NCBI GenBank assembly: GCA_000004985.1
Contig: GG738921.1
Strand: one strand, 5' to 3'
Origin: Naegleria gruberi
Taxonomy: Eukaryota
DNA length: 64,000 nucleotides
Shown here: positions 3,401-63,262 of the stretch, piece after piece
Layout of the letters: each line of letters starts with the position of its first letter
Position numbering within the stretch: position 1 is the first letter of the stretch
The notes under the pieces: model-generated
Database searches by the model: none
Told to the model about the DNA's origin: nothing
What the model saw: only the letters and a program-made list of their open reading frames with translations
Made by a program: the position numbers and the translations under genes

Positions 3401-4064
3401 AGGAAGTGTATGGATAATGTTAACTAAACATTATACTTCATTAGAAGAAAGAGATCGTGATTATTTAACATTTCATATACATAGAGGTAGTTCTTCTTCT
3501 ATTGGTGATACTACTGTTTTTAAACAAGGTATGGATAGAGTTTTTTATAATGAAAATACTCTCATTCATAAAGGAAGATATTCAAATGATCCACATTATA
3601 GAATTTGTTTAAATTCAGATGATTCTAAAAATAGAAAGAAATCTATTAATTTAAATTCAAATTTAAATTTAAATTCATCATCAAATAATTCATATAATTC
3701 ATCAAATAATTCATCAAATAATTCAAATGATGATTCAAATGATCAATTATCAATATTTAGAATAGTATTATCACAACATGGAATGATACAAAGTATTAGA
3801 TATTCATTATTTTGTTATTCAAGTGTACCATGTAGTTTAGAACCCATTCCACAAACATATAAATATTATAGAAATGTTAGAGATTCATGGACAAGTAATA
3901 CATGTGGTGGTAGTTGTAATCAAATTAATACTTTTAGATTAAATCCACAATATTTAATTTCATTACCAAATACAAATAATATTAATAATATTAATAATAT
4001 TAATCATCATCATTCTCATCATGTAATAATAGAAGTAATAGTCCACATACAACATTATTTGATA
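440..4064 (+). CDS. Calpain-7/PalB-like cysteine protease with N-terminal MIT-like region; multi-exon, 3' end lost in assembly gap
   Basis: Exon 1 is 440..581 (MNFNINF...LRNQ), followed by a GTATGT..ATAG intron at 582..652. Exon 2 is 653..949 and contains an MIT-like stretch (ATKYYAQAAEYGLELISK). A second intron lies at 950..1006. The large ORF body carries calpain catalytic-core motifs: DCSFVASL (Cys), ANHAYAIL (His) and NPWTKKGWKGPYS (Asn). The reading frame switches between about 1221 and 1294 with no GT available, so there is a frameshift inside an (AAT)n/(CAA)n tract. The ORF then runs into N's at 4065. Confidence 0.65.
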
Positions 4065-6358: not shown

Positions 6359-6360
6359 TA

Positions 6361-30578: not shown

Positions 30579-30665
30579 CCGATGATAGCTCAGCTGGTAG
30601 AGCATGGGACTGTAGCAAGAACAACTGTCATCCTGTGGTCGGCGGTTCGATTCCGTCTCATCGGA
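30579..30665 (+). tRNA. tRNA-Tyr (GTA) with 14-nt intron (30616..30629)
   Basis: The acceptor stem CCGATGA pairs with TCATCGG. The D-arm is TAGCTCAGCTGGTAGAGC (A box). The anticodon loop is CTGTAG followed by the intron CAAGAACAACTGTC one nt 3' of the anticodon. The T-arm is GGTTCGATTCC (B box). A T-run lies downstream. Confidence 0.85.
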
Positions 30666-30735: not shown

Positions 30736-30808
30736 GCTGGCGTAGCTCAGTCGGTAGAGCGTTGGTCTAATAAGCCATTGGTCGCCGGTTCGATCCCGTC
30801 CGTCAGCA
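30736..30808 (+). tRNA. tRNA-Ile (AAT), tandem to tRNA-Tyr; two stem mispairs
   Basis: The sequence is GCTGGCG/TAGCTCAGTCGGTAGAGC/G/TTGGT-CTAATAA-GCCAT/TGGTC/GCCGG-TTCGATC-CCGTC/CGTCAGC-A, with canonical A and B boxes. There is a 27:43 T·T mismatch and a 50:64 C·T mismatch. TTTT lies downstream. Confidence 0.65.
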
Positions 30809-41121: not shown

Positions 41122-41866
41122 TTAAGCTGTAGTAGTGGTGTTTGAAGCAACTACTGGAGTAACAACAGTTTCAGTCTTCTTGGCCTTCTTAGATCCCTTC
41201 TTGACCTTCTTAACCTTCTTAGCACCCTTCTTAGCAGTCTTTTTTACCTTCTTAGCACCCTTCTTTGTACCCTTCTTGACCTTCTTGGCACCTTTCTTAG
41301 TGGACTTCTTAACCTTCTTAGCCTTCTTAGATCCCTTCTTGGCACCCTTCTTGACCTTCTTAACCTTCTTAGCAGTCTTCTTTGCCTTCTTAGTACCCTT
41401 CTTGGCAGATCTAACAGTCTTCTTTGCCTTCTTAGCACCCTTCTTGGTGGACTTCTTTGGTGTTTTCTTGACAGATCTTACAGTAGTCTTGGTGGACTTC
41501 TTGGCAACCTTCTTAACACCAGTTTTCTTTGGAGTCTTCTTTACAGATCTAACAGCAGTCTTCTTTGGGGAAGCCTTCTTGGTTGCCCTCTTTGTTGTTC
41601 TCTTGACAGATCTAACGGCCTTTGGCTTCTTTGGAGCAGCAACTCTAGTGGAGTTTCTTTGACTAAGAGTCTTGATAACGGTAGGTGGCTTCTTAGCTCT
41701 TGTGGTTTTAGTGGCTCTAACACCTCTAATTTTAGCCTTAGCCTCAGTCTTCCAATTGATAAGAATAAAAGCAACAATTAAAATTAGTACGTACAGCCAT
41801 AGTCATGCCGGCAACACAGGCCAACAAGGCAATCAAACACAATGTAAGGAAAAGCTTAGCACTCAT
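41122..41866 (-). CDS. Secreted poly-lysine/alanine repeat protein (signal peptide + ~200 aa of AKKGAKKVKK-type repeats), 2 exons
   Basis: Exon 1 is 41866..41795 (MSAKLFLTLCLIALLACVAGMTMA). A 46-nt GTACGT..GGAAG intron lies at 41749..41794. Exon 2 is 41748..41122 and is open to TAA. Lys is encoded almost exclusively by AAG, with GCT/GTT/ACT/GGT/AGA bias (a highly-expressed-gene codon pattern). The listed + strand ORF 41135..41662 is its antisense (FLAFLDPFL repeats). Confidence 0.55.
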
Positions 41867-42517: not shown

Positions 42518-42925
42518 ATGTTCAAGATCTCATTCGTCGAGTTTTCAACACCTCAAACAATTAAATCAGCCTTATCTTGTGAGGTCAAGAATAAGAACAA
42601 CAATTCTCCAAAGAAACGAGGACGACCACCAAAGAAGAAACAACAGGAAAGAGATTCAAAAGTTGTCACATCCTCAGAATCAATGAAAGATGCTCAAAAG
42701 AATGATGTAAATCATCCTGCTGTGATCTTGACCGAATGTAAGAAGAGGAAATTGGAGAATGTTTGTGAGCAATACAGAACTCCTCCATTGGTGGTTTCTC
42801 CTCCTTCACTGCATGTTGAGGAGGATTCTAATACTCAAGCAACAACAACAACATTAGCAAGGAATAGAAAAATTATAAGAACCTCAATATCGCTTAAAGA
42901 AATATTGAATTATAATGGACAACAA
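42518..42925 (+). CDS. AT-hook protein family member 1 (3' end in gap)
   Basis: It opens MFKISFVEFS, carries the AT-hook PKKRGRPPKKK, and then has RKIIRTSISLKEILN before N's at 42926. Confidence 0.5.
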
Positions 42926-42978
42926 NNNNNNNNNNNNNNNNNNNNNNNNNNNNNNNNNNNNNNNNNNNNNNNNNNAAA

Positions 42979-43486
42979 GATGTACATTAACAAATTCTCT
43001 ATTGTTGACTTTACTCCTGCTCAGAATATTCAAACAAAAACTACTGATTTACCAAAGAAGAGAGGTAGACCACCTAAGAATTCACCACATGCAAACAAAT
43101 CAATGTTTATTAGGTCAACTGAGACAATGCCAATGAGGTATGAATTGACGAATAGAATGACAGACCAATTCAAGAAGGATAAACGAAGAAGAAGGGAAAA
43201 GAAAGCATGTAATAGTCCAAACACATCTAATTGCTCCACATCTAGTAGTACATCATCTTTGACTATTGTGCAAGAATTGAATAATTGTTTAGTTTCAGAC
43301 ACATTAGTTTCGTCTCTTCCAACAACGCATGCATCCACTCCTCAATCTAATATCACTACCACTAACGACAATACAACAACACATCTAGAATCCAATCTTA
43401 TCACCTCCAACAATAACAACACATCCAATTATAAACCTCCAAGAAAGATAAGATATTCGATATCCATCCAAGAATTATTAAATTGA
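42979..43486 (+). CDS. AT-hook protein family member 2
   Basis: The N-terminus is MYINKFSIVDFTP, the AT-hook is LPKKRGRPPKNSP, and the C-terminus is PPRKIRYSISIQELLN*. Confidence 0.55.
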
Positions 43487-44081
43487 AACTATTCCAATAT
43501 TAATACTAATTAGATGTAATATTTCAAAAAGATGCGTTTTGGAAAGGTAGATGCTTTTTTACGCGATTTCCTTTCAGTAGCTATCACACATGTGTTTCGA
43601 ATCGTTTCGAATAATAGTGCAGAGGACAAATAAATCACCTCTTTCATTATCACTCACAATACAAAATACATGCATGTGTCATCTTCTTGTTGGTCCTTTT
43701 ATCAACAGAAAGTACATGAGAATCGAATAGATGAAGAGGTTTAGTTTGTGAAGGATGTGTGAAATAATTTTTTTAATAAATCAAATTCTACTAACTGTGG
43801 ATTCTTTAGCACTACTAGCACAAATTACGGAGACCAATCTTCAATTAGTTTCTCACCTTGCCGCCTTTCTAATTTTGTCCTTTAGCCAATTCAAGAATGT
43901 TAAAAGTTTTTCGTTGAGGGGATTCTTATCAAGGGTTCTCTCCTTAGTAATACTGTACAATACAATGCCAGCTACAAGAATAAATAAGCTCTCAATATCA
44001 AGGTTCGATAATTTTTGTTGGAAAGCAGGTCCAGCAATAAATCTTTAAAAAAATCAATTATTCGAAAGTAAACTAAATTAC

Positions 44082-45274
44082 TTACGGAATCATAAAGAAG
44101 AGATTGGACATTACCAAACGAGAAGTTAGAGCAATCATGGCCAAAGTTGAAGATCCATGCTTGAAAACAACCAATTGAGTAACATTAAATAAAACATTGA
44201 AAACTTCAAATAAAATTGCAACCCAATAAACTCCATCACAAATGTCACCCTTCAAAGAATTCATTCCAACAACACATTTCAATGAATATAACATGTAATT
44301 AGGTAGGTCAGAAGCAGATTTCACAATACTATTTGGATTCCAAGGAATTAATAAAAATGGAATGAAAAATAAAATTCCAAATAATAATTGAAATAATTCA
44401 ATCCATGCGACCATATAGAAAACATCTAATTTCTCCTTTTTTAGATAATGTTCAATGTAAACATTGGCAATGGCTTGGAAAAATGTGGAAATTAATAGAA
44501 CGAGAGCCCAAATCCATTCTGTTGAGCTAGTTCCAGACCTTCCTGAAAGAAATAAAGGCAAAACATTTAAAATTACTCCAATGATTACAATAAAAGTTCC
44601 TCCAAATTGTAGAATATTATATCTCACCGATAAGAATATCATGGAAACGAGCATATTATTGATGATAATGGTTTGATTCATTGCCACGTTTACACTACCT
44701 GAAACATTTGATGAGGCAATGACCAATATCAAGTTTGCTAAATTCGTTAAAAATCCCATAATTACAAACTATTCCAATAATTGATTAGAAACATTCCTCC
44801 CATTTGAAAACATACTCTATAAACAGGAAATTTTCTCATTTCCTTTGTAACACTCCTAGTTCCAAACATTTTAAACCAAGCAATTGGCCAATAAACAATA
44901 TTTGACATGGTTGGAATTAAAATCGATGACAGGAAATATCCATAATGTTTCATTTGTGTTGACAATCTAACAATCAGAACAAAATTAATAGATCTAGAGA
45001 AGGCCATCACCAAAACCACCAAACACAAGGCCCCAAACACAACATACTTGTTGGTGTGAAGGAAATTCCTCACAGCACCTAAATTCCTTCGGAATGTTGA
45101 AGTTGTGTGAATTTGCATCTCACAATTATTGACATTTCCTTGAACAGAATTCTGATAACCAGGATCCTGAACCTCAACATGAAGACCTTGTTGCAGTTGT
45201 GAATTATTGTCGTTATGTAGTGATGGAACAATCAAGGGCACATGTTCATCATCTTTTCGTGCCATTTTTTTCAC
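44082..45274 (-). CDS. CRT-like (chloroquine-resistance-transporter family, DMT superfamily) membrane transporter, 2 exons
   Basis: The exons are 45274..44816 and 44768..44082, with a 47-nt GTATGT..GGAATAG intron at 44769..44815. The protein has multiple TM segments, including NVYIEHYLKKEKLDVFYMVAWIELFQLLFGILFFIPFLLIPW. Confidence 0.65.
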
Positions 45275-45726
45275 ATCAGGAAAAATTGTCGTTTTTCTTA
45301 AGGTTCACAAGGAGTCTAGTTATGTTTTGGAAACAAGTATTGAATTTAAATTAGCCGGCTCCAGTTATGACTCATTATTTTGTTATGACTTTACGAAGAT
45401 AATTATTGGCAAAGAGAAAGATCACTCAAGAAAACAAACCATTCTATCATCAAATGAAAAGTGAGAACACTTTCAAACTGAATGAAGGAGGGCTTCTATT
45501 AATCAACTTATTTCATATAACCAACAAGAACAAAAGAGGAAATGTGTCCACTGTTTTAAAATGACTACACATGGACAAGTGTCCCCGACCTAATAATAAT
45601 TATGAACAAAATTTCTTCCTTTTCTGAAGCGATTTTCAAAGTCCATAGGCTAAAACCCAAAAGACTTCAGACCTACAGCCAATTTTAAAGATTAATTCAT
45701 ATAATATTTATGATTAAGAATGGATA

Positions 45727-46500
45727 GTGAGAGCATTTTATCACTATTCACAAATAAAAAATTAATTACACAAATTTTTTGTGAATATTTGTGGTAAAAT
45801 ATTTTCACAAATTTGTGTTTGTGTTTGTGTAGACAGGCCATTTTATCTTGCACAAATACATATTTTTATTAAAATTATTCCAACTAATGTCTATCTCAAT
45901 AGAAGGTATAAGTTGAAATCAGAAAGTAATTTCTACAATATGTTGATTCGAATGTAATGTATCCTAATTTAATTAGTGATGATGGAGTTGGTTCTGGTGG
46001 TGCGGAATCAATGAAAGCATGCTCCAAAAACAAACTGTTTTGTTCCAAATATTTAATTATTCCATCTGTTACTGCTTTCCCTCTTTATTTCACTTGAATC
46101 TTGGGTTGTTGGTGGTGTTGATGTTGGTTTCTCTGATGAAGGTTCTTCTTACATTTTTTAATATTTAATTAATAAAAAATGTATTAAACTTCTCCTTCAT
46201 CAAACGGGAGAAGAAATCAGCAACCATTAGAACCCGATTCATGTCCAATTCTTGCAACAACAATATTGATATCGGATCACATATTTCAAGATCAACGACG
46301 AATGAACTTTTACTACTAGATTCAAAGAAAACAACCTAAGATTCAAGACCAACAATAATTTATTATTTTAATAAAATACTTTTGTGTTTTCACAAATATT
46401 TGTGCAAGATAAAATGGTCTGTCTACACAAACACAAATCACAAATTTTTAAATCTGTGTAATTAATTTTTATTTGTGTTTAGAGATAAAATGCTCTCAGT
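45727..46500. mobile_element. Non-autonomous TIR DNA transposon (MITE-like), ~775 bp with ~120-bp terminal inverted repeats
   Basis: The left arm at 45727..~45850 is GTGAGAGCATTTTATCACTATTCACAAATAAAAAATTAATTACACAAATTTTTTGTG...GTGTTTGTGTTTGTGTAGACAGGCCATTTTATCTTGCACAAATA. It is the near-perfect reverse complement of the right arm at ~46375..46500, with a handful of mismatches. The ~520-bp internal region has no long ORF. Confidence 0.6.
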
Positions 46501-47311
46501 GTCCTGTTATTATGAAAGTTGCAGTTTGCCATGAAATCTATTGTAACAAATAAAGACCACTCAACAAGCAATCATTTGACACTTCTGTAATACATAAAAG
46601 AGCACAAATTATGAAAATCCTAAAATCACAGATACTATCATGTTCCTGTTAGCAATGAATTGTATAACTCAATTTGAGGACATATTTCAATCAATAATAA
46701 TATTCTCCATATTGAACTGTTTTTAGCCTTGTCATGCTAGTTGTGTTTCATATTCCTCTCCAATTTCATTAAGAACAGTTTTAGCACAGTACTATTATAT
46801 TGACACTCCCATTGTCAGATAAGGCGACAAAACCCTTTTCTGCCTTAATACTCCCTTCCCTCATTCAAGTGGGTAAATCTGAAATTTCTGCTGACTTTTG
46901 GAAGGCGGTTATTGACGCTAAGGAGCTTTGTGTGTAAACATGTAAAGTATTTTCAAATAAAGAAGTCCTCAAATGGAAATTCTGCTGGTTAAATGTGTAT
47001 TTGCGGTTTTAATGCACCCTTATTAAGGCAGTGACAGGAGGCGTATCCAATGGAGGATCACAATTAAATAATGGCACTTTAATTAAATCGTCATATTTGG
47101 CCATCCTTAACATCAGGTACGGGCAGTTAGAGGATACGAAATATTTAAATGTCTGTCCTGCGACACACATCCCCCAATGCTATTAGAGCTTGTGTGTTTG
47201 AATTGGATTAAGAGTAAGCAAAAATCTCTTCATCAACCTTCTCGTTTCACAAAATTTCACACACACACGAAGAGTTATAATTCTTCCATTTTCAATTACA
47301 GAAAAAAAAAT

Positions 47312-47851
47312 ATGTATAGCAAATTCTCAATCGTTCAATTTACAACACTCAGCTATATTCAGCCATCACATCAGGACAGCAACTGCCTGTGTATGGATGT
47401 TTCTTCTTCAAACAATTCAGCTAAAAATCCACTCTCCATTGGTCATAATCATGTTGAACTGATGCCAAAGAAGAGAGGAAGACCTATTAAGAATGAACCA
47501 AAATCCAACACCCAAATGGTAATTACCTCAACAGAAAGTTTGTTATGTCGGTCAATGAGCAATCGTCAAACAAATGTTACAAAGAGACAACACAGAGACA
47601 GTACATGTTGGGAGAGAAGAGTGAAACCAAAACCTGCAACAGTTACATCTCCTTCATCATCAATGGATATGCATACATGTATTAGCAATACTCCTTCAAT
47701 GCTCAATAGCCATACATATAATTACTCACAACCAGCAACAAGTATTCATGTTGAAAGCGAGGAGTTGCCTGCTTCTCCACATGGAACTGTGCAAATCTCC
47801 AAGAAGAGAATAATAAGAAGTTCGATATCAATTAAGGAATTGCTTAATTAA
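47312..47851 (+). CDS. AT-hook protein family member 3
   Basis: The N-terminus is MYSKFSIVQFTT, the AT-hook is MPKKRGRPIKNEP, and the C-terminus is KKRIIRSSISIKELLN*. Confidence 0.55.
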   Translation: MYSKFSIVQFTTLSYIQPSHQDSNCLCMDVSSSNNSAKNPLSIGHNHVELMPKKRGRPIKNEPKSNTQMVITSTESLLCRSMSNRQTNVTKRQHRDSTCWERRVKPKPATVTSPSSSMDMHTCISNTPSMLNSHTYNYSQPATSIHVESEELPASPHGTVQISKKRIIRSSISIKELLN

Positions 47852-49172: not shown

Positions 49173-49494
49173 ATATTTAATGTACCATATTATTTTGTAA
49201 AATAGCACAAAATTGATGGCTTAATTGACTGAATTCCTTTATTTGCTGTTGCATAGTAACAAATTCAAATTAAATTTTCAAAGTTAAATTTAGATATTTA
49301 TTGTTTGGATTTTGGGTAACGGAATTCATAACAGAAAAAAATACATCCAAATCAACTGTGGAAGGAACTACTTTGATTGGAGAAGAAAAACACATCACCA
49401 CCAATTTTTTGATACTCTTTTGATCTAATCAAATATAATTGTAGATTTAACTTGATCATTTTTGGATCTTTTATCAACTTGATCGGAATTGAAA

Positions 49495-51543
49495 ATGGTA
49501 ACAGTTGATTTAAATAACGAGGATGAGAGCACATTATTGAAGGCTATAGAGAATAAGCCTGCTTCACCTCTCCTTGACTTTACAGATGAAAATGGAACAA
49601 TTCATATCATTGATGATATGGATACAAAGGAAGATACAGAATTGGCTAGAGCTATCCAAATTTCTCTTGATCAAGACAAGGCTTCAAATAATAATAATAC
49701 CAATTCAACAAATGTACCTTCAAACCCAGATGAGTTAATTTTAAGAACTACTTGGACTCCACAGGGAGATCAAGAGAAATTTCCAAGTGGTGTAGGCTTG
49801 AAGAATATTGGAAATACTTGTTATGTAAATGCATTGTTGCAATCATATTTCATGATACCCTCTGTTTTGAAAAGTATCATGAAAACAAAACCATCAGCTC
49901 AAAAACCCAATTCTTCTCCAGAAGATGTACAAATGACAGAAGCAAATCAAACACAGGATGCTTCATTGGCCCACTTAGATGAAGAATCTAGTATTGAGTT
50001 TTTACAGAGTCTACAAAAATTATTTGCAAGCATGTTACTTTCAAATACAAATTTTGTGGATCCCTCACCAGTCATGCAAAAATTGAAAGATGCTGAAAAT
50101 AAGCCATACAAAATTGGTGAAATGCAAGATTTACCAGAGTTTAACAGTTTATTCCTCTCTAGATTAGAGAAAGGAATGGAAACCCTACATAAGGAATCCA
50201 GAGAAAATATTTCAGCAAAATTCAAAGAACTTTTCTATGGAAAAACAGCTGTGTTTGTTGAAGCTGAGGAGTTGGACCATACCAAGATTGAAAAAAAGAC
50301 CATCGATACATTCAACCATCTTATCCTTCCAATATCTCAAGATACACGAAACTATATGGATGCCTTTGAATTGTGCATGAAGGACGACATGATTGAATAT
50401 ACCACAGATAAGAGTCACAAGACAAAGGCTCGTAAGACCATGTGGTTTGATGGAAAGGATTCTGTTCCTCCAGTTTTATTTTTACAAACATCTAGAGCTG
50501 TTTATGGTACCAATACTTTGACCAAAATTCAAAATTCAATTGATTTGCCTTTTGATCTTAATTTAGGACCATATCTTCTTCATAATAAGGAAATAACAGA
50601 AGGTATCAGATCCAAATTGAAAGTACTGAATCAAGAACTTGAACATGTTGACAGACGTCTTAAATCATTCTTGGAGTCTTATGAAAATAGAGACTTTGGA
50701 TTAATTCAAGCTTTTGAAGTGTGCTCAAATAGGTTATTTGAAATAAGGCATGAATATGAAGAACAATTATCTTCCTCAAATGCAAACAACATTGATCATT
50801 TTTCAATTGCTATTCAAGTTTTACAACAACAACAAGAAAATATGACAAGAAGAGTCTCTGAATTGAAAGAAAAGAGAGATTCATTACTCAACCAAATAGA
50901 AAAAGTTTGGGAGGTTCAATATCCTCAAGAATTAACATACAATCTTTATTCAATAATTATGCATTCAGGATCAAGTGCCTTAGGTGGACATTACTGGAGT
51001 TATATCAAATATCAAGGAGATGATGATACTTGGTTTAAGTTTAACGATACAATAGTCACCACTTTAACAAAAGAAGATGTGATCAGAGAAGCTTTCAAAA
51101 CCAAGAGTAATTCTGCATACTGTTTAATTTATATTGATCCAAGCAAAACTGGCAAGTTTGATGCATCTTTCAAAGATGAAATAGTCACAGAAGTACCTCA
51201 ACAAGTACTCGCAGAAATTGAAAGGAAAAACCATGATATTTTAAGAAAATTCAAACCTGAAATTCTACAGGAAATGAAGAAGAATTTTTCAGTCAAAGAT
51301 TTATTGAAAGATGATATGACCAACAGAATACATTTAGCAAGAAGCGATTTGCAAAATTCATCTTTAGAGCATGATTACAAGTTGAGAAACTTCCTTTCCT
51401 TCCTTCAATGCATTATAAATGCAGCTTCTTCTGAGGCTGCTAAAAACGAGCTCAATGCTATATTTTGCGCTCACATTGTAAATGAAGGTCAGAGGCTGTA
51501 TTTGGTGAATCATTTTCAAAGAATCCTGAACATCAAAAAATAG
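49495..51543 (+). CDS. Ubiquitin carboxyl-terminal hydrolase (USP, C19 family), USP25/28-like with N-terminal UIM
   Basis: The Cys box is GLKNIGNTCYVNALLQ and the His box is YNLYSIIMHSGSSALGGHYWSY. The UIM-like motif EDTELARAIQISLDQD lies near the N-terminus. Confidence 0.8.
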   Translation: MVTVDLNNEDESTLLKAIENKPASPLLDFTDENGTIHIIDDMDTKEDTELARAIQISLDQDKASNNNNTNSTNVPSNPDELILRTTWTPQGDQEKFPSGVGLKNIGNTCYVNALLQSYFMIPSVLKSIMKTKPSAQKPNSSPEDVQMTEANQTQDASLAHLDEESSIEFLQSLQKLFASMLLSNTNFVDPSPVMQKLKDAENKPYKIGEMQDLPEFNSLFLSRLEKGMETLHKESRENISAKFKELFYGKTAVFVEAEELDHTKIEKKTIDTFNHLILPISQDTRNYMDAFELCMKDDMIEYTTDKSHKTKARKTMWFDGKDSVPPVLFLQTSRAVYGTNTLTKIQNSIDLPFDLNLGPYLLHNKEITEGIRSKLKVLNQELEHVDRRLKSFLESYENRDFGLIQAFEVCSNRLFEIRHEYEEQLSSSNANNIDHFSIAIQVLQQQQENMTRRVSELKEKRDSLLNQIEKVWEVQYPQELTYNLYSIIMHSGSSALGGHYWSYIKYQGDDDTWFKFNDTIVTTLTKEDVIREAFKTKSNSAYCLIYIDPSKTGKFDASFKDEIVTEVPQQVLAEIERKNHDILRKFKPEILQEMKKNFSVKDLLKDDMTNRIHLARSDLQNSSLEHDYKLRNFLSFLQCIINAASSEAAKNELNAIFCAHIVNEGQRLYLVNHFQRILNIKK

Positions 51544-51607
51544 TAGACGAATTAATAGAAGACCACTCTGTTACTGAATTGGCTTAGAAGATTACAAAAT
51601 TTATAGA

Positions 51608-52153
51608 ATGGCTAGATTGGCAATTAATAGAGCTCTCACATCAATTACAAATAGCACATTCACTGATTCCATTAATTATTTGGCATTTTCAATTTCAGAA
51701 TCTAGACGTATTAAGAACAAATTCATTCAAGAAGAAATGGTGAAGGAGGCTCAATCTGTTCTCAATATTTGTTGTGCCTCTCTCCTCAGTGAAATGCTGT
51801 CATTCTTGCAATTTGAAACTGGCGAACCAAGTAAGCAAATTGTCAACTTTTGTGTTAAATGTGCAGCTGATTTCGGCTCTATTGAATTGTGTAAATACTT
51901 GTTAGAAAAATGTGACCTAATCAACCAACAATTCGATGGTTGTTTAAAGACCTATAATGTTTGGATTGAAGATTTAAAGAAACGAATTAAGAATGATAGA
52001 GTTATTGGAACAAACTATCACATCGATAAGAAATCTGTCCACATTTCTCCTCAAGAGGATGAATCTTACTATGAAGCTGAAATTGAAGAAAGCAAGAGAA
52101 ACTATCCTCAATTCCTCTCCCTACGAGCAGCTTACGCTTCGGATTTTATATAA
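51608..52153 (+). CDS. Hypothetical 181-aa protein (possibly separate gene; no recognisable domain)
   Basis: The ORF has an ATG at 51608 and an in-frame stop upstream at 51575. I could not build a clean splice to the USP gene. Confidence 0.3.
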   Translation: MARLAINRALTSITNSTFTDSINYLAFSISESRRIKNKFIQEEMVKEAQSVLNICCASLLSEMLSFLQFETGEPSKQIVNFCVKCAADFGSIELCKYLLEKCDLINQQFDGCLKTYNVWIEDLKKRIKNDRVIGTNYHIDKKSVHISPQEDESYYEAEIEESKRNYPQFLSLRAAYASDFI

Positions 52154-52364
52154 ATTATTTTCAACACAACTATATATTAAAATACTCTTGTACAACAAGA
52201 TCCACCTCAATGACACGTTTATTGACCCTTTAAAAGATCTAAATTCCAAGTAATTTCCATCAAAATAACCATCGCTGCTGTTAGAGAAAAGATACTTGGC
52301 AATGTTGTTTGATTTATTAATTTTTTATTTTTACACGTAATTGCCCCATCATCACTCTAAAAAA

Positions 52365-55199
52365 ATGATGCAAGAACGAGACCCACACAACAAGGCAAAG
52401 GACGAAGATGAAGAGGGTAAGTGTATCATCCTATTAGAGGTGCGATGTATTTTTGATCATCAATTGTATTAATATTATTAATCATCATCGTGATATTATT
52501 TTAATTATTATTGGATAATTTTTGAACAACAACAACAATATTATTAATATTCGATCTTTATAGTTGAATTTCCATTCCAAAATTTGGAAAAGACTCAAGT
52601 CTTACAAGAGACTAGAATTTTCAACGAGTCACCTCTAAGTCCTCGTAAATGTGTTCTTACACTTCTCCAACTCTTGTACGTCATTTATCAAGGAAAGAAT
52701 TTGAATGCTACTGAAGCTACCGATGTTTTTATGAACATTACAAAGCTTTTCTTAAGCCCTGATGTACGATTGAGAAGAATGTTATATATTGCTGTAAAGG
52801 AACTTTCAAGGACAGCTAATCAAACATTTGTAGCAAGTAACAGTCTCTTCAAGGACATGAGTCAAAATCAAAACGAAGATTTTAAAATCAACGCTATTCG
52901 TTCATTAAGAACAATCATGGATGAAAATCTTTTCAGTAACCTTGAAAGACACTTGAAGCAATGTGTTGTTGATAAGAATCCAGGTGTTGCCAGCTCTGCT
53001 ATTTTGGCTGGTTTCCACATGTCCGATTCACAAAAAGGTGATCAACTTGTTAAGAGATGGACTGGAGAAATTCAATCAGCTGTTGATTCTCGTTTCCACA
53101 TGGTACAATACCATGCTTTGGCATTATCTTACAAACTTAGACATCAAGATGGTTTGGCTATCAGCAAGATTGTTTCCGCTGGTATGCAAAATCTCAGATC
53201 ACCTCTTGCTCATACTCTTCTCATCAAATATTCCATGAGGATTATGAGAATGGAAGGAAATATTAATTCTGATAGAAGCAAGGCAATTTTACAATATTTA
53301 ACATCATGTCTTAAATTTAGAAATGATATGGTCATTCTTGAAGCTGCTAAAGCAATTTGTACAATTAGAGATTTAGGAAAGGAACTTTCCGCAGCTATTG
53401 AAGCTCTTCGTATGTTCTTGTCATCAAACAAGCCAGTTAAGAGATTTGCTGCAATTCGTCTTTTGAATGATGTTGCAAATCATTATCCAACTCTTGTTTC
53501 TCAATGTAATAACGAACTTGAAAAGTTGATTGCTGATCCAAATAGAAATATTGCTACCCTCGCTGTTACAACTCTCTTAAAGACTGGACAAGAAACAAAT
53601 ATTGAAAAATTGATGAAGAAGATTCAAAGATTTATTCCAGAAATTCCTGATGAATTCAAGATTATTGTTGTTAAATCTATTGAATCTTTGTGTATTAGAT
53701 ATCCAAAGAAGTTCTACAGCATGGTTTCTTTCTTATCAAATGCTTTACGCACTGAAGGTGGATATGAATATAAGAAACAATTAGTCAGTACTTTGATTTC
53801 AATCTGTAAGGCATTGCCAGAAAGTAGAGATTTGATTGTTTCCTACTTGTGCGAATTTATTGAAGATTGTGAATATACCATTGTTTTGCAACAAGTATTA
53901 CACTTTTTGGGAGATGAAGGTACTCAAAGTACAGGTCCTTCTAAATGTATTAGATTTATTTATAATCGTTTGATTTTGGAAAACCCAACCGTAAGAGGAA
54001 GTGCTGTTATTACTATTGCTAAATTTGCTGCCAAGATTCCAGACCTTAGAAAGTCTATTTTGGTCATTTTGAGAAGAGTTTTACTCGATAGTGATGATGA
54101 AGTCAGAGATCGTGCTGTTTTCTACGTTAAGGCTCTCGAAACAAAGGATGAAGATTTGATTAGAAAGTTGATTGTTAATGACCTTCCAGATAATATGCAA
54201 CACTACTTCTACAGTGTTGAAAAGAGTTTGGTTAACTATCTTCAATCTACTCTTGATGAACCATTTGATCTTTCTGATGTCCAACTTGTTGATGCTTCTG
54301 CCATTCAAACTGAAGCTCCTACTGAAACTGGTTTGGAATCTGCTGTAACACAACCAATCCTTTCTGAAACTACCACCACTGAAACTAGCAATGCCAATGA
54401 TACTCAAGAATATGAACAAGCAATTACAAAGATTCCACAACTCCAAAATCTTGGAAAGGTTTTCAAGACAAACCCTCCAATTTACCTTACTGAAGTTGAC
54501 GCTGACTATGTAGTCTCATGTGCTATCCATGTTTTCGAATCTAATATTGTTCTCCAATATATTGTAAAGAATAGAGTTGAATCTCAACAATTGAGTAACC
54601 TTATTGTTGATTTGGATTTGGGAGATTTTGAAGATGTACAAGAAGTTTTCAAGATTCAAGCTGAATCAGCTATCAAATTTAATCAAGCCGAATCTACCTT
54701 TGTTGTTTTGAAGAGAGAAAAGGAAATTGCTACTGGTAAAATTTTCAGTACTCTCAAGTTTTGTACAGCCGATGTTGATCCAGAAACTGGTGATCCTTAC
54801 GATGAAGAAGATGAGAATGAAGACGAATTTGAATTGGAAGCATTTAATATTCGTGTTACTGATTTCGTTAGAAATATGGCAGTATCATCATTCAAAGAAG
54901 AATGGGATAAGCTTGGTGAAGAGTCCGAATTTGCTCAACAACCAATTGAATACACTGCATCAGATGATTTGCAAGCTGCTGTTGACAAGTTCATTTCTAG
55001 TGTTGGTTTGAGACCAATTGGTGACAGAACCGTCTCAAAGAAGACTCACTCTTTATACTTTGCTGGTAAATCAATATTCGGTGATATGGTTTTGGTTGCT
55101 GCTCAATTAGGTGAAAAGAATGGTTCTATACTTCTTAAATTATCTGTGCGATCACAAGGAGATTTGAGAGAAAGTATTGTTCAACAATTATCTGATTAA
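52365..55199 (+). CDS. Coatomer subunit gamma (COPG), 2 exons
   Basis: Exon 1 is 52365..52416 (MMQERDPHNKAKDEDEE-). An intron with GGTAAGT..TTATAG boundaries lies at 52417..52563. Exon 2 is 52564..55199 and opens VEFPFQNLEKTQVLQETRIFNESPLSPRKC...LLYVIYQGKNLNATEATDVF, which matches the COPG N-terminus ([27 protein letters not shown]). Confidence 0.85.
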
Positions 55200-55228
55200 A
55201 CTTATTTAAATTTATATTATTAAGATTT

Positions 55229-56671
55229 TTATTGTTTTGCATAAACCAAAAGGAAACTCTGAGAAATTGACACTTCTTCAGCAATGACTTCCTTTACATC
55301 CAAATCCTGAATTTCATACCACTTTCCTTCAGCAACATTATGTACATGTATTTTGTAGACACTTCCATCATGACAAATATTGGCAACAAGATTGTAATGA
55401 CTTCCAGAGTAATCTGGAGCTATCTCACTAATGTCTAAATTATTGAGAGGAAAGTTAACAATTGTGTTATTCTTCTCTTCAAAGAAAAAGTTCTTGGAAA
55501 ATCTCTTTACATGGAAAACTAAATATGGTGGTAATTTTTCAATCTTGTACTTTCTCATTTCTACATTGCCATCATTGAGTGGAACAGCTGTTTCCTTCTC
55601 ACCATTGAATTTCGAAAGCAAACTGAAAAGCGAAACTTGGGGTAAGATATTTCTCTCATATTCATCTTTGAATATTGGCGCTGAAGGCACATCTAGTGTC
55701 AAAAACATGAATGGTGTTGTATTTTGTGAGGTTGTTTCTTCCACTTGTTTTTTGTCAGCTCCACCCGATTTCTTTCTTTTAATTACTTTCGAAGTGATTG
55801 TAATCCTACCTCTAAATGATTCTGATATTATACTCTTTTGTTTTGGTTGATTATCAGTCAGTTCTCCATGTAAATAGTTCAACAACCATGTGAAAAATTG
55901 GACTGGGTCTATACTTTCTCCTAGTTTAAATTGCTTTGCGTTTGATAAAATACTTTGTACAAATTCTAGAGGATTTACATGATTCTTAAAATTTTTAGGA
56001 TTCCAAATTTTTCTTAACAATTCAGAAAATAGTAATACAGATCTGGACTTGACTTTTGAAAGATTCTTCTGATCCAAAAGGAAAAAGTCTCTAACTGGCT
56101 TAATTCTAGTAAGTGCTTGAATTGCCACATTTATACCATCTGTAGATTGTTTGATTGAATTTAATCCAACAAAACCTGGCATGAATGTAGCACCATTACT
56201 TATTGATGTTACTGTTTTCAATTGAATATCCAATTCCTCGACATCCTTCTCAGAATATGTTGGATTCAAATTAAATTTAATATCCTCCAAACTCTTATCA
56301 TTCACTTCATAATTATCAGGCAAACAATATATTTTTCCATTAGAAATACTCATAAATAAGTGATGATCCTCGTTCAGTGAGTGAATATAAGCTGGTGTAG
56401 ACTCTCCTTTTCCTTTAAAGAATTTTCCATCAACCAAACAACAATAAACATTAGTATTGGACAATGTTTCGGAGCAAACTTTTTCAAAATCAAAATCCAA
56501 AACTTTTCTATTAATTGTATCCAGATATGGACACTCACTCTCATCTATATTCTGTACTGATTGATTACCATTGGTCTTTAACTTTTTATGATGATTATTC
56601 GTATCCTCCGATTCACTTGATTGAACACTCTCAGACAACTTTCTCTTTAAAGATTCTTCCATAGTCTTCAT
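55229..56671 (-). CDS. USP39/Sad1-like tri-snRNP protein (zf-UBP + catalytically inactive UCH domain)
   Basis: The zf-UBP block is CPYLDTINRKVLDFDFEKVCSETLSNTNVYCCLVDGKFF. The degenerate Cys box MPGFVGLNSIKQSTDGINVAIQAL lacks the catalytic Cys, as in USP39. Confidence 0.75.
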   Translation of the reverse strand: MKTMEESLKRKLSESVQSSESEDTNNHHKKLKTNGNQSVQNIDESECPYLDTINRKVLDFDFEKVCSETLSNTNVYCCLVDGKFFKGKGESTPAYIHSLNEDHHLFMSISNGKIYCLPDNYEVNDKSLEDIKFNLNPTYSEKDVEELDIQLKTVTSISNGATFMPGFVGLNSIKQSTDGINVAIQALTRIKPVRDFFLLDQKNLSKVKSRSVLLFSELLRKIWNPKNFKNHVNPLEFVQSILSNAKQFKLGESIDPVQFFTWLLNYLHGELTDNQPKQKSIISESFRGRITITSKVIKRKKSGGADKKQVEETTSQNTTPFMFLTLDVPSAPIFKDEYERNILPQVSLFSLLSKFNGEKETAVPLNDGNVEMRKYKIEKLPPYLVFHVKRFSKNFFFEEKNNTIVNFPLNNLDISEIAPDYSGSHYNLVANICHDGSVYKIHVHNVAEGKWYEIQDLDVKEVIAEEVSISQSFLLVYAKQ

Positions 56672-56858
56672 ACAATTATTAAATTTCAAAATTGATATAA
56701 TCTTCTAATAATATACTATTTAAAATAGTGTGCCGGCACCAAAACTACAATATCGAAATAACAACAACAAGGCTTCTTGTGATGAAGGCTTGATAACAAG
56801 GAATATTTGTAAGAGAATCTAAAAATTAAATTTTTTTTTAAATTTGAAATTGAAAAAA

Positions 56859-58841
56859 ATGAGCAAGCAATACATTGTCACGCCGCGCGACATTCAAAAC
56901 TTTGATGAAAACGAAGAATTTGTTTTTGATGAACCTGAAGTAACTTTTAATGACGATATTTCCAATGTTGTTGTTATTGATGGTTTACCAATCATTGACC
57001 AAGCCAAGGAAGAAGCTTTAAAGAGCAAGGTTGTTCAAATTATAGAAAAGAAAGCCGAAGCAAAGATTGTTAATTTTTATATTCCATATCAAGCAGGAAA
57101 GTCTAAAGGTATGGCTATTGTAGAACTTTCAACAGCAGAACAAGCTAAAAAGGTCCTTGATGGAATTGAAGGATTTAAATTTGCCAGTTTTACTCTTCAC
57201 TCAATTTCTGCAGCTGAAGTGGACAAGTATCAAAAATTCGACGAAACAACATACCAACAACAACACAAACAACAATCAAAACAATACAAGGAAAGAGATA
57301 ATTTGGTCAGCTGGTTGAAGGATCCTAACGCAAGAAGTCAATATGCTATTAGATATGATGAAACTGTTGATATTTGTTGGAATGATCCACTTCACGTTAA
57401 AGAAATTATTTACTCTAAAGAAAGATGGTCCGATGATAAGATTGACTTTTCACCACTTGGTTCATATATTGTTACTTATCACGAAAAAGGTGTTGCCTTG
57501 TGGGGTGGTCCAGAATTCAAAGACCAAGATACTCTTTCACATAGGAACGTTATTAGTGTTCAATTCTCACCAAACGAATCATTTGTTGTAACTGTTAGTG
57601 AAAGTCCAGCTAGAGCTGTCTTGTGGGATTTGAGAGCCCAAAGAAAGGCCATGTCTCTTCCATTGAAGGATAGAAGTGCTCTTAAAGGACATGTTTTCAA
57701 GTGGAGTGCTGATGAAAAATACTTTGCCAAGATGGGTGTAGATTGTATCCACATTTTCGATTCTTCTACTATGGAATTGCTCCACCAAAAGACATACTCT
57801 GTTCCAGGTGTCAGAGATTTTGCTTTCAATCCTGTTGGTAAATCTTTCATGATTTATTCCGCTATTAATGATACCAATGGAGAAGGTTTGGTTACTTTGG
57901 TTGATATTAACAGTAGATCAATCAAGGAATTGAAGTCTAAACCATACTATAACTCTACTGATATTAAGCTCAACTGGCAACTTAGTGGTGACTACATTGC
58001 TATTGCTACTAGTCGTGAATCAACAATTCAAATGGAAAAGGTCATTACAACTGCTTTCGATGTTATGAAAGTTAACCAAAAGAACTTCCCAATTGAAGGT
58101 ATTGCTGATTTTAATGATTGTGTCGATGAATTCGAATTTGAACCAATCGGAGATACTCTCGCCATTATTCACGGACCTGGTAATGTCAAGAAGTCTTTCA
58201 GTTTGTATTCATTCAAGAATGCTGTTCACAAGCTCATTAAGAAATGTGAAGGAAAGACAATTAATAGAATGTTGTGGAGTCCTCGTGGTCATGATTTGGT
58301 TCTCATGAATACAAAGCTTGTCAGTGTTACTCTCGAATTCTGGAATGCTGAAGAAGGTGAACTTGTTGGTACAGGAGAACACTTCTCTATGACTGATGCT
58401 TGTTGGGATCCATCTGGTAGATATTTCTCTACTTTTGTTAGTGCTGAACGTAGATCAAATGACAATGGTTTCATTATCTGGACATTCTTGGGTAAGGTTA
58501 TGCATAAGGCTAACGTTGAAAGACTCCTCGAATTCAAATGGAGACCAAGAATCAAATCACTCCTCACTGCTAACATGGAAAAGGAAGTCAAGAAGAGATT
58601 ACCAAACAAGAAGGTTGAAATTGAACAAAAACTTTTACAAGAAGCTAAGGCTTTGCGTGAAGCTAAGCTCAAGAAGAGAAAGAGTGCTTGGGATGAATTT
58701 GAACAAGTTTTGGCCAGACTGAAGTCTCAATACGAAAAGATGAAACCAGAATTGATTGCTCTTAAGGGTTATGATCCTGATGAATTTAATCAAGAAGAAG
58801 TTGATGAAGTTATTGAAACAATTGAAGAAATTGTCGAGTAA
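56859..58841 (+). CDS. Eukaryotic translation initiation factor 3 subunit B (eIF3b): RRM + beta-propeller
   Basis: The RRM region is NVVVIDGLPII...KGMAIVELSTAEQAKKVL. WD/propeller repeats follow, and the C-terminal helix is rich in K and E. The 660-aa length is typical of eIF3b. Confidence 0.8.
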   Translation: MSKQYIVTPRDIQNFDENEEFVFDEPEVTFNDDISNVVVIDGLPIIDQAKEEALKSKVVQIIEKKAEAKIVNFYIPYQAGKSKGMAIVELSTAEQAKKVLDGIEGFKFASFTLHSISAAEVDKYQKFDETTYQQQHKQQSKQYKERDNLVSWLKDPNARSQYAIRYDETVDICWNDPLHVKEIIYSKERWSDDKIDFSPLGSYIVTYHEKGVALWGGPEFKDQDTLSHRNVISVQFSPNESFVVTVSESPARAVLWDLRAQRKAMSLPLKDRSALKGHVFKWSADEKYFAKMGVDCIHIFDSSTMELLHQKTYSVPGVRDFAFNPVGKSFMIYSAINDTNGEGLVTLVDINSRSIKELKSKPYYNSTDIKLNWQLSGDYIAIATSRESTIQMEKVITTAFDVMKVNQKNFPIEGIADFNDCVDEFEFEPIGDTLAIIHGPGNVKKSFSLYSFKNAVHKLIKKCEGKTINRMLWSPRGHDLVLMNTKLVSVTLEFWNAEEGELVGTGEHFSMTDACWDPSGRYFSTFVSAERRSNDNGFIIWTFLGKVMHKANVERLLEFKWRPRIKSLLTANMEKEVKKRLPNKKVEIEQKLLQEAKALREAKLKKRKSAWDEFEQVLARLKSQYEKMKPELIALKGYDPDEFNQEEVDEVIETIEEIVE

Positions 58842-58900
58842 ATCTAACCTATTTATTTATTGATTAAATCAAATATAGTTTTTTTGTACAGAGAAGGAAT

Positions 58901-61900
58901 TTATGTTTGTAAAAAGTTCAATAGTGATTCCAAAGATTCTGCAACTTGAATAAATTCTGGTCTTTGATTAGGTTCATTATTCCAACATTCTTTCATAATT
59001 TCGATATAATCCGAAAGAGATAGTTCTAATTTTGAAATTCCATATTTATCAATTTCCTTTTTTGAAATATTATTTTCGATCCATGCTTGATCTGTAGTAA
59101 TAATTCTTGGTCTATGTCCTTTGATGACTTCCATCAATATGGAAAATACTGTATTGGTGTCTGACAATTCATCCGAAAATGGGACCATTTCGTATAATAA
59201 TTCCCACAAAATAATTCCAAAAGAGTAAACATCAATTTTAGTAGTAGGACCTCTATGATGATTAGAAAGTAACTCCTATTAGAAATTATATTTAAATTAT
59301 TCAGAAATGTTATCAAAAACTTACAGGTGCCTTTTAAAATAGTTTAAATTAGAATTCGAATAAAACTTACAATATCTTTACATCAAAATTAAGAAACTGA
59401 TCTAATTTCGTATTACTTACATAATAGAGTTCCAACATTTGTGGTCATTGTTGCAGAATTCCCATTAACAATCTTACTTAATCCAAAATCTCCCACTTTT
59501 GCATTCATATTCTTGTCGAGTAGAATATTTGCACATTTCAAATCTCTGTGAATTATCTTGTTTGGCCTAATTGAATGTAAATAGACCATTCCTTTACATA
59601 CATCATTCAGAATATTTAATTTTGTAACGTAACTCAATTTCTTTTTTCCTATTTTTGATTCGTAAATTGCTCCATCTAAGGCACCATTCGAAAGATATTC
59701 CACCTTAATATTCAATTCATTAAGTACATCAATTGTATTCAAATACTTACAATCATATATTTTGATTCAGTGGATAGAGAAATTCCATAACAACTAACAA
59801 TTGAAGGATGTCGTAGGGAGCTCATCAATAAGGCCTCCCTTTCAAATTCTTCATCATCAGTGTCTGTCTTGAATTGCTTAATGGCAACATCTGTTTTGTT
59901 CCAAAGTCCTTTATAAACCACACCCGACGCTCCTTCACCAATCTTTTTCACGATAGTAATATCTGAAATTGGAATAATGTACCTTTCAGGAGTTTCATTA
60001 TTCAAACTATTCTCAAGTAAGGGCAAGTTTTCGATACCATTTCCAAATACAAAGTATTTGTTTTTGAATTGATCTTCAATTCTCTTCTCCGCCTTTTCTT
60101 GTTTTCTCAATTTGAACAACTTTTTCATTACATAAACGATTACAAAAATTGTAAAAGAAAAAATGATGGTGAGTGAGATAGTTCCCAAAACTGCTGATGG
60201 AATAATTATCTCAAATGGAATGGATTGACAGTAATAATACTTGCCTCCTCCCAACACCAATGAAAATCCTGCTGGACATTTCATTACTTCCACATTAACA
60301 AACGAGGTAATAACATCCAAGTCTGTAATTGAAAATCTCAACTCAAAATGGTCAGAATTGAAATCCTTATCAACGAGTAGGTATTGTAAATTGTTGAGCA
60401 TGATATATCCTTCTCCGACTTGATAATCCTGCTTTTGTAGAATGATATTCTTCACAGAAGAAACTACCAAAAGTGGGGAGTCACTAGAAAGCTTTGAAGT
60501 GCTTTGATTATATTGATCATAAATGAATAATTTGAAATCAAGTGGTTGGCCAGGATACACTTGAATGGATTTGCCTTCTGCAACTCTGAATTGACCATCC
60601 TGTCCTCTAAATTCAATTCTTTGGCTCACCAATTCTGAACCGATATCATTTCCATAATAGTAAGCTCTGTTTTCACCAATCATTCGATATTTCGTATTTG
60701 GATTTAAGGAACTCGATGTGGATGATTTGTAGATACAACCTCCAACTTGAAATGCAATATTATCCTGACAATAACTGTCAGTTGTGGCAATACCACTTAA
60801 TAGATTGAGGAGATAGATGGCTCCTCCCTTCTTTGCCTCATTTCCAATAAATGAACAGTTTGAGAGAGTTAGGGAATTACTGATCTCAATTCTAATGGCA
60901 CCTCCAAATTCTGCAACATTATTCGAAAAGAAACAATTGAAAACTATTAAGCTATTGCCATTGTAAAAAAGAGGTGAACCACCCATATTGTTTCTGAACT
61001 GACACGTCCTTACCATTGAAGCTGTTTGCTCAGATGTCATGATTGAAACAAAAGAGGAATCTTTCAGAACTCTATTGGAAATGAATTTTGATTCGTCTAT
61101 TACTATTGGAGCTACAATTGTATTAATATCCCAATAGATATCCTTAATAGATAGTATTGTTCCAGTATTGTTATTAAATGTACAATTAAATACTTGAACA
61201 GTTTTACCTTTTTGAATGGAAATCAAATTGGCAAATATATTGTTAGTTACATTCCAGTTTCGAATAGAGATTTCGGTAGAACCAATCAAGCTCAGATAGG
61301 ATTCGGATATATCACCAATAACTCGATCAATAATACTAATTCCATCCAAAACAACTTGAAAAACTATCATAATCTGAATAGTTGGAATGGAGCTAGCCTC
61401 TGTAATATTCAACACGTTTCCAGCATTGAAAGCACATAAAGAACTAGCTGTCCAATGACAATTGTTAATTTTCACAGTTCCAAAAAAATCAATATTTAGA
61501 ATTGCATTCAATAATTTAGAATTATCTATTTGAATAGACTCTGTCTTACTCAATCTTACTTTCGTTTCAGAAATGGTCGATTCAAATACTCGAAATGTCT
61601 CCACCATTGCATTTTTCAATCCAAAGTTGTTGAAATTTGACTGATTAATAAGTAAATTTTTCACATTTAATTCACTCATTACCAACAAATCACTATGGCA
61701 TTGATCAAAACTGAGAATTTCCAATTTCCTATCCAAACTCAATGCTCTACCAACTCCTCCATTCACAAAATGAAATCTCTCAATTACACTCTGCCTATTA
61801 ACGAGCCACTCACATCCAGGATATATAAAACCATTAGTATCCATTCCAATCCAACTCAATTCAAATCTATTGGTATATTCGGAAAAGTCAAACAATTGTC

Positions 61901-62279
61901 CACATTCATAACTTCCCTTCATCATTATTTTCATTTGAAATTTGAATAATTTTGATGAATTGCCAATAGGAAACATGGAATATAATTCATCGTTAGCAGC
62001 AGTGATGACTTGATGAAATACTTGACATGGTAGATTCACATCAGTGCATGTATTATTCTTCGGTTGTTGTGATTGGTTGGAGTCAATGTAATAGGTACGT
62101 TCAATACTCTGCTGTTGTGCTCCGACAAGAAGAACAACTAGGTGATGTATTAAAATTAATGACACGATGAAGATTTGTGCAATTGTTCGAGTAGACAAAT
62201 GGTGTGGCAGTAGTTGTGGTAGTTTCATTCTTTTTTGTTGGAAGATATTGTCCAAGGTTTTGTGTGTTACTGTTATCAT
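58901..62279 (-). CDS. Receptor-like protein kinase (TKL-type) with signal peptide, parallel beta-helix (PbH1-like) ectodomain, one TM helix and kinase domain; 5 exons including 5-nt and 6-nt micro-exons
   Basis: The exons are 62279..59751, 59703..59421, 59375..59371 (ATATT), 59330..59325 (GCACCT) and 59275..58901. The introns are 47, 45, 40 and 49 nt, all GTAAGT..AG. Kinase motifs are present: GEGASGVVYKG, AIK, YMIV|EYLSNGAL, HRDLKCANILL, DFGLSK, NVGTLL-Y-I-A-P-E-LL and DVYSFGIILWEL. The joined CDS is 3198 nt, which is divisible by 3. Confidence 0.75.
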
Positions 62280-62617
62280 GGAGATGATTACAACTCTTGG
62301 GGAGGCATTTCAATAAAAATTGGAATGTTGTTGGATATTGTTCCAGAATTTCAAACACTGGTTAAAGCTCTCAGGTTGAATTCAACTGTTCGATTATTCT
62401 CGTATGGGACAAAAGCATTCATTACCAAATATATAAATTAATATCTTGATCCCAAATTCATGGCACAATCACTCTTGCATCAACGCTTTTACCTATGTCA
62501 TGACATTGTCTACTTTCAAATGATTGTAGTGTTGGTACTTTACTTCATTTCTTTGGAACGTATAGGAAGGTAAGAGAGGAAATTGTTTTTAATAATGTTG
62601 TTGCCTTAATTGAAAGA

Positions 62618-63262
62618 CTAACCTTGGTGTTCATTCTGTTCTCCATCTTGGGTTTCCTCTTCATCATTCCCTTCATCGATGAGAAAAGCAGACCGTTTGA
62701 GTGAGTGGAGTGCCTCACAGGTTTCAATCATATTATAGTAGGATTCGTCTTGTGTAATTTCTTCATCCCAATGAGGGAAAGTTCTACATTGTTGAGGTCG
62801 TACTGGATAAATTGAACAAGAATAAGTCACTTGTCCATCTTCTTGTGTTTGAGGTTTCAGAAATATGCATTGAACTCGTTTGTGAAAGGCTAAGGAAGGC
62901 TTATATTTGATAGAGATTGAGGTTTCATCTGATTGTTTAAGGGTTGACAAGGTATAGTTCTGAATAAATTCATTCGGAGATATTTTCAAATAATTTGATA
63001 TTTGTTTCACATTATTCTCATCTAGATAAATACGTATAGATCCAAAACCGGTACAACACTTTCCACATTGTGTACACCCTTTGAAATTTTCAGTAATTAA
63101 TTTCTTTCGTTCCTCCAATTTGTTTTTATTCCTATTGCATGATAAGTGGGTAGAGAAAAATTGTTTATTAAATTCCTTCCTCATTCCGACAGAACATGTT
63201 ATATTGTGTTTCAGCATTGCAGTCAAAATTGAAGCTTTCCTTGAGAGTTGTTGTGTTTGCAT
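62618..63262 (-). CDS. CxxCxxCC putative zinc/iron-chelating domain protein (UPF0153/YkgJ-like)
   Basis: CTQCGKCCTGFG is followed by further Cys and His residues (CSIYPVRPQQCRTFPHWDEE). Confidence 0.5.
   Translation of the reverse strand: MQTQQLSRKASILTAMLKHNITCSVGMRKEFNKQFFSTHLSCNRNKNKLEERKKLITENFKGCTQCGKCCTGFGSIRIYLDENNVKQISNYLKISPNEFIQNYTLSTLKQSDETSISIKYKPSLAFHKRVQCIFLKPQTQEDGQVTYSCSIYPVRPQQCRTFPHWDEEITQDESYYNMIETCEALHSLKRSAFLIDEGNDEEETQDGEQNEHQG

Follow-up and report, generated by a model that had tools for sequence, protein, structure and literature searches.

The 64,000-nucleotide stretch of Naegleria gruberi DNA analyzed in this study (hereafter "the window") has a GC content of ~31%, is densely covered by long open reading frames (ORFs) with many poly-Asn tracts, and contains six runs of N that represent assembly gaps. 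Few ORF-free stretches of the window are as long as the one from 45305 to 47110 (~1.8 kb), which hosts a 783-base unit bounded by a long inverted repeat. A preliminary description of this DNA had placed the element between a CRT-like gene and an AT-hook gene, and this placement was confirmed by a left-hand gene matching Pfam PF08627 and a right-hand ORF that encodes a KKRGRP motif. The two neighboring genes are transcribed divergently, with 447 bp between the outer end of the left arm and the start of the CRT-like ORF (45274) and 673 bp between the outer end of the right arm and the start of the AT-hook ORF (47177). The main features of the locus are:

44082–44759 and 44762–45274, minus strand: CRT-like transporter gene, left neighbor (Pfam PF08627, 1.4e-33 for the larger piece)
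45722–45885, plus strand: left arm of the inverted repeat, 164 bp, GC 0.24
45886–46354, no strand assigned: core, 469 bp, GC 0.32
46355–46504, minus strand: right arm, 150 bp, GC 0.23, reverse complement of the left arm
47177–47851, plus strand: AT-hook ORF (KKRGRP), right neighbor, without Pfam match

The locus is flanked by a small family of AT-hook ORFs (42518–43486 and 47177–47851) that have no Pfam match. Their units have in common an N-terminal KFSIV(D/E/Q)FT, the KKRGRP motif and a C-terminal (K/R)IIR(S/T)SIS(I/L)KE(I/L)LN, and at the DNA level positions 43052–43122 and 47465–47535 are 73% identical. The gene at 42518–43486 comprises two units and is broken by an N gap (42926–42975). 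The largest N run (2294 N; 4065–6358) lies inside a calpain-like ORF (1782–6431). The ORF at 41135–41662 consists of an internal tandem repeat (41176–41481 versus 41314–41616, 72% identical) of hydrophobic, FLA/FLT-rich units without Pfam match. ARAGORN predicted a tRNA-Ile(AAT) at 30736–30808 and, upstream of it, an odd tRNA-like feature of 87 nt (30579–30665).

A ubiquitin hydrolase ORF (49495–51543) is identical over its full length (100%) to an NCBI "predicted protein [Naegleria gruberi]", and its next-best matches stem from N. lovaniensis (51%) and Willaertia magna (39%). The window thus represents nuclear DNA of N. gruberi and not of a plant. The genes for this protease (USP) and for coatomer-gamma are adjacent in both N. 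gruberi (window positions 49489–63262) and N. lovaniensis (PYSW02000017.1). Upstream of USP, N. lovaniensis has a transmembrane kinase gene and a CxxCxxCC gene, which are found ~10 kb downstream in N. gruberi, and this gene order indicates that the USP/coatomer-gamma region is rearranged between the two species. No orthologous intergenic region was found in N. lovaniensis, as the CRT-like and AT-hook genes are not located beside USP/coatomer-gamma. An environmental metagenome contig (ENA ERZ929261, contig k127_392309) is ~98.7% identical to window positions ~43974–45330, the region of the CRT-like gene, which points to a second N. gruberi-like strain in public data. This contig ends near 45330, ~390 bp short of the element. 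Exact look-ups of the ORFs within and beside the element gave no match.

The outer ends of the inverted repeat lie at 45722 and 46504, and the terminal consensus reads GGAyAsTGAGAGCATTTTATC (left terminus GGATAGTGAGAGC; right terminus, as reverse complement, GGACACTGAGAGC). The inner ends of the arms were located at ~45885 and ~46355 by gapped alignment. Hence, the repeat that had been delimited as 45727–46500 is real but extends farther on both sides than was claimed. At the outer ends the similarity of the arms stops sharply, with 16 of the next 40 bp outward being identical, which is the chance level for this composition. The arms are also set apart by their low GC content (0.23–0.24, as compared to 0.32 in the core and 0.31–0.35 in the outside flanks). 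Self-BLAST of the window recovered the arm pair with 71.7% identity over 138 columns (E 1.5e-17) as the sole long inverted repeat across the 64 kb.

Alignment of the two arms yielded 119 matches and 7 mismatches, corresponding to 94.4% identity (119 of 126 aligned positions) or 5.6% substitution. The same alignment contains 62 gap columns, and the identity drops to 63% if these are counted. The indels, which amount to ~29 bp extra on the left and to 12, 7, and 4 bp extra on the right, are located in an array of short half-sites described below. The arms had previously been portrayed as near-identical over ~120 bp. While mismatches in the aligned columns are indeed few, and the quoted CAGGCC/CAGACC mismatch is present in the alignment, the indels had been overlooked, and "near-identical" overstates how alike the arms are. 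Large indels of this kind also show that the arm pair is not young, and the recent mobility that had been deduced from high arm identity is weakened by indels totaling ~55 bp.

In each arm, a module built as CATTTTATC-N3-6-CACAAATA occurs twice in direct orientation, once at the outer end and once farther inward. The module is ~30 bp long and has the general form RGnCATTTTATC-N3-6-CACAAATA. The four copies and their best-matching parts are located as follows:

45722–45756: outer module, left arm
45729–45742, plus strand: terminal 14-mer GAGAGCATTTTATC, with CACAAATA 6 nt later; identical right copy at 46484–46497 (minus strand)
45827–45858: inner module, left arm
45834–45857, plus strand: inner-module stretch CAGGCCATTTTATC-TTG-CACAAAT; right counterpart at 46398–46421 (minus strand)
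46428–46397, minus strand: inner module, right arm
46504–46471, minus strand: outer module, right arm

Counting both strands of the window, the 9-mer CATTTTATC has four sites, and all of them fall within the arms: positions 13 and 118 of the left arm and positions 13 and 89 of the right arm. CACAAATA starts 3–6 nt after every one of these sites. The inner module lies 76–105 bp inward of the outer module in each arm, and when the four modules were aligned over ~40 nt, 21 of 44 columns were invariant. The best-conserved part of the arms is a 49/50-nt block around CAGGCCATTTTATC-TTG-CACAAAT, in which the two arms differ by one mismatch and one 1-nt indel.

The modules are interspersed with and surrounded by a dense array of CACAAAT/ATTTGTG half-sites, which is shorter in the right arm than in the left. 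The 314 bp of arm sequence hold 11 of the 28 half-sites in the whole window, whereas shuffled sequences had 0.07 on average and never more than 2. Some half-sites form palindromes, namely the 12-bp CACAAATTTGTG at 45806–45817 and CACAAATATTTGTG at 46391–46404. The short internal motifs that had been noticed in the arms are thus present and, judged by the counts for CACAAAT/ATTTGTG and CATTTTATC, strongly enriched.

No intact ORF above ~62–63 codons was found in the core, and pieces of the core showed no similarity to the rest of the window including the neighboring AT-hook genes. When all 30 open pieces of the element from the six frames were joined into one query and compared to 5.8 billion proteins, nothing was retrieved at E ≤ 10. 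The 62-residue core piece with the top summed codon-usage score (15.5 bits) was in addition compared with 1.84 billion representative proteins in a search that used no word index. Its three matches (~1e-7) were judged spurious, because they involve long tandem-repeat proteins with many weak Pro/Thr/Ser-rich stretches. Rfam and tRNA scans yielded nothing relevant to the element (best Rfam candidate MIR8675, 21.9 bits versus a threshold of 90.8 bits, E 0.8).

Codon usage was scored with a table trained on the long ORFs of the window, for which coding windows average 0.35 bits per codon, while for random open pieces of comparable length the median is 0.01 and the 90th percentile 0.20 bits per codon. 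The following consecutive open pieces of the core, all on the minus strand, have coding-like codon usage:

46335–46168, minus strand: open piece, 0.21 bits per codon
46148–46056, minus strand: open piece, 0.48 bits per codon
46084–45899, minus strand: open piece, 0.25 bits per codon

The three pieces lie in three different frames, and no convincing intron was found that would join them. These scores are a weak hint that the core may be a decayed, frameshifted coding remnant on the minus strand. The earlier view of the core as ~520 bp of non-coding DNA agrees with the short ORFs and the absence of homologs in the searches above, but codon usage leaves room for a coding ancestry. The core also contains a nested hairpin (46093–46347, no strand assigned), which is formed by an 18-nt inverted repeat (46093–46110 and 46330–46347, 17 of 18 nt complementary) and encloses an AT-rich palindrome of 34 bp at 46150–46183 (DNA fold z = −4.3). 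No duplication flanks this hairpin, which may represent a further small insertion or else a transcript with secondary structure.

Target-site duplications were searched for by varying the boundary positions and considering lengths of 2–11 bp. Three candidates emerged. The first is AGT/AGT around the perfect 14-mer GAGAGCATTTTATC. The second is a 5-bp pair of TAGTG (45725–45729, plus strand) and CAGTG (46497–46501), which agrees at 4 of 5 positions and overlaps the outermost bases of the repeat. The third, ATTAAGAA/ATTATGAA (7 of 8 positions), is asymmetric, its left member being separated from the repeat by 1 nt and its right member by 4 nt. None of them exceeds chance, as 12% of the trials with shuffled flanks matched or surpassed this number of candidates. 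With 5.6% substitution between the arms, a duplication of 8–10 bp ought to have survived, and its absence therefore counts against a simple insertion.

The search for additional copies gave a similar picture. Neither blastn with word sizes 9 and 11 nor nhmmer with an arm profile detected a further copy or a solo arm in the 64-kb window, and 23 kb of N. lovaniensis contained none either. A 23-mer from the arm core had no match in viral (IMG/VR) and JGI metagenome contigs, and the terminal pattern had none in the viral contigs and no true match in the JGI metagenomes; both collections barely sample Naegleria. The single metagenome match to the terminal pattern falls within coding sequence on a 73-kb contig that has no relation to the element and was attributed to chance. 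A Pfam scan of 20 ORFs of the window revealed no transposase domain. [quoted passage not shown] Thus, the anatomy agrees with the MITE-like DNA transposon proposed in the preliminary description, but a duplication above chance, a second copy and a transposase in the window did not accompany it, and mobility of the element is unproven. That description had also named the grounds on which it should be given up, namely a lack of other copies anywhere together with arms that result from a local inverted duplication without defined termini. No other copy was found in the scanty sampling of Naegleria, but the termini are defined.

From the sequence features taken together, the most likely reading, to which we give about an even chance, is that the element is an old, decayed, non-autonomous cut-and-paste DNA transposon of N. 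gruberi, to which no superfamily is assigned. The arms are read as transposon ends because they have sharp boundaries, are AT-rich and distinct from their surroundings, carry two direct modules each together with an array of half-sites, and enclose a core with no intact gene; the unusual length of the surrounding intergenic region also fits. In combination, these features are unlike what is expected of a random local inverted duplication. Our confidence does not go higher because the duplication is missing and evidence for copies is lacking. The transposon reading is supported by the fact that Naegleria genomes are known to carry DNA transposons. Repeats make up 5.1% of the N. gruberi genome, and CMC-EnSpm and PiggyBac elements have been annotated in N. 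lovaniensis (PMC6125883). In N. gruberi, a full-length MuDRF element with a 9-bp target-site duplication has been described (PMC3164196).

The main, though less likely, competitor is that the arms arose by a non-mobile local inverted duplication, which now acts as a symmetric regulatory region or has simply survived as one, with CATTTTATC and CACAAAT being putative sites for host transcription factors. The absence of a duplication above chance and of other copies in the data searched is in line with this explanation. Furthermore, owing to the divergent transcription of the neighboring genes, each of them has the same 150-bp arm upstream in the same orientation, and palindromes such as CACAAATTTGTG and CACAAATATTTGTG are expected for dimeric DNA-binding proteins. 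However, sharp ends, a distinct composition, and outer and inner modules would not be expected if an arbitrary sequence had been duplicated locally. A regulatory function is further challenged by the lack of motif enrichment upstream of other genes in the window, whose other 63.7 kb contain 17 dispersed CACAAAT sites. Nor could conservation be called upon, because N. lovaniensis lacks synteny at this locus.

Considerably less probable is a hairpin-RNA locus, in which a read-through transcript of the 783-bp unit would form a stem of ~140 bp and be processed by Dicer to small RNAs. Naegleria encodes RNAi components, and a very stable panhandle is predicted. As single-stranded DNA, the 783-bp unit folds at −153.7 kcal/mol, as compared to −73 ± 6 kcal/mol for shuffled sequences (z = −13), and the core contains a nested hairpin of its own. 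However, every long inverted repeat folds in this manner, which makes the fold uninformative on function. In addition, no Rfam family matched, and the stem is interrupted by loops from the 29- and 12-nt indels; in the predicted fold, the arm indels form local hairpins. Such a locus could be partly compatible with the transposon reading, as an exapted or silenced relic, and would suit an origin by local duplication as well. It is very improbable, even in a draft assembly with six N runs in the window, that the structure was created by cloning or assembly, for instance through a chimeric inverted join, because the nearest gap (42926–42975) is 2.7 kb away and the arms have diverged by 7 substitutions and several indels, whereas inversion artefacts give perfect arms.

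If the element is a decayed DNA transposon, a transposase encoded elsewhere in the genome would have mobilized it in trans. The modules and the CACAAAT/ATTTGTG half-sites would then be putative binding sites of this transposase. Two sites per end may have allowed a transposase multimer to pair the ends, as in Tc1/mariner elements of the IR/DR type or in hAT, CACTA, and Mutator elements with their subterminal repeats. The 469-bp core could represent the remnant of an internal region, either of a deleted transposase gene or of a captured host fragment.

The combination of two-module arms with no recognizable duplication is mildly unusual, and the two-module layout could help in finding the matching transposase. 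In case the element is confirmed genome-wide, the repeats of N. gruberi, of which little has been described, would gain an unclassified non-autonomous DNA-transposon family, possibly one that is already curated in some repeat library. Its position between divergent genes could affect their regulation. It would be a long shot to regard the element as the first described Heterolobosean DNA-transposon family that has two-module, IR/DR-like ends and either no conventional duplication or a 5-bp one at the palindromic GGACAGTGTCC. Such a Heterolobosean family, if true, would point to an uncharacterized transposase lineage in Naegleria. Alternatively, the arms could be a symmetric regulatory palindrome of the host that is common to the two divergent genes. 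Overall, the significance of the locus is very small, and the main value of the analysis is corrective in that the DNA is of Naegleria and not of plant origin, the arms are not near-identical and mobility has not been proven.

The element was compared to known groups of DNA transposons. Assignment to hAT, Mutator, CACTA, or Tc1/mariner was considered and rejected, as each of these superfamilies fails the duplication test at the corresponding termini. Tc1/mariner elements of the IR/DR type, such as Sleeping Beauty, Tc3, Minos, and Paris, have inverted repeats of ~150–250 bp with two direct transposase-binding repeats each, one outer and one inner. The element resembles them in its long arms, each with an outer and an inner direct module 76–105 bp apart, although binding to these modules is putative. 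Unlike Tc1/mariner elements, it is not flanked by a TA duplication: the left end can be read as TA followed by GTGAGAGC, whereas on the right GCTCTCAG is followed by TG instead of TA. Its termini are TAGTG and CACTG rather than a matched CAGTG pair, an additional array of short half-sites lies between the modules, and no DDE/D transposase is known to belong to the element.

Elements of the hAT, CACTA, and Mutator superfamilies carry subterminal repeat arrays, which, together with the IR/DR ends of Sleeping Beauty/Tc3-type elements, are the closest parallel to the layout seen here. With Mutator-like elements, a superfamily that occurs in N. gruberi, the element has in common arms of at least 100 bp, a G-rich terminus (GGA/GAGA), and a core that is possibly captured or decayed. 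It differs from them with regard to the 9–11 bp duplication, as ATTAAGAAT and TGTTATTAT at the repeat ends agree at 4 of 9 positions; the best pair of 9-mers (7 of 9) requires a 4-nt offset on the right side and does not exceed chance. Similar to CACTA/CMC-EnSpm elements, it has short subterminal repeats in direct and inverted orientation and, three bases inside the boundary, a right end reading CACTG. In contrast to this group, the left end is TAGTG, the repeat runs 3 bp past CACTG, and its 3-bp flanks, GGA and TCC, complement each other instead of forming a direct repeat. The 8-bp duplication typical of hAT elements was not observed (AGAATGGA versus TCCTGTTA, without match), and of the YARNG termini of this superfamily only the left one (TAGTG) fits, whereas the right one (CACTG) does not.

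MITEs are defined by high copy number. Compared with strict plant and animal MITEs, the element is at the upper size limit with its 783 bp, its arms are ~10 times longer, and it has no TA/TWA duplication. Like MITEs of the Tourist and Stowaway types, it is small, without coding capacity, bounded by inverted repeats, located near genes, and able to fold into a hairpin. At the most general level, the locus displays the generic traits of class II elements, namely terminal inverted repeats with defined ends and no coding capacity of its own.
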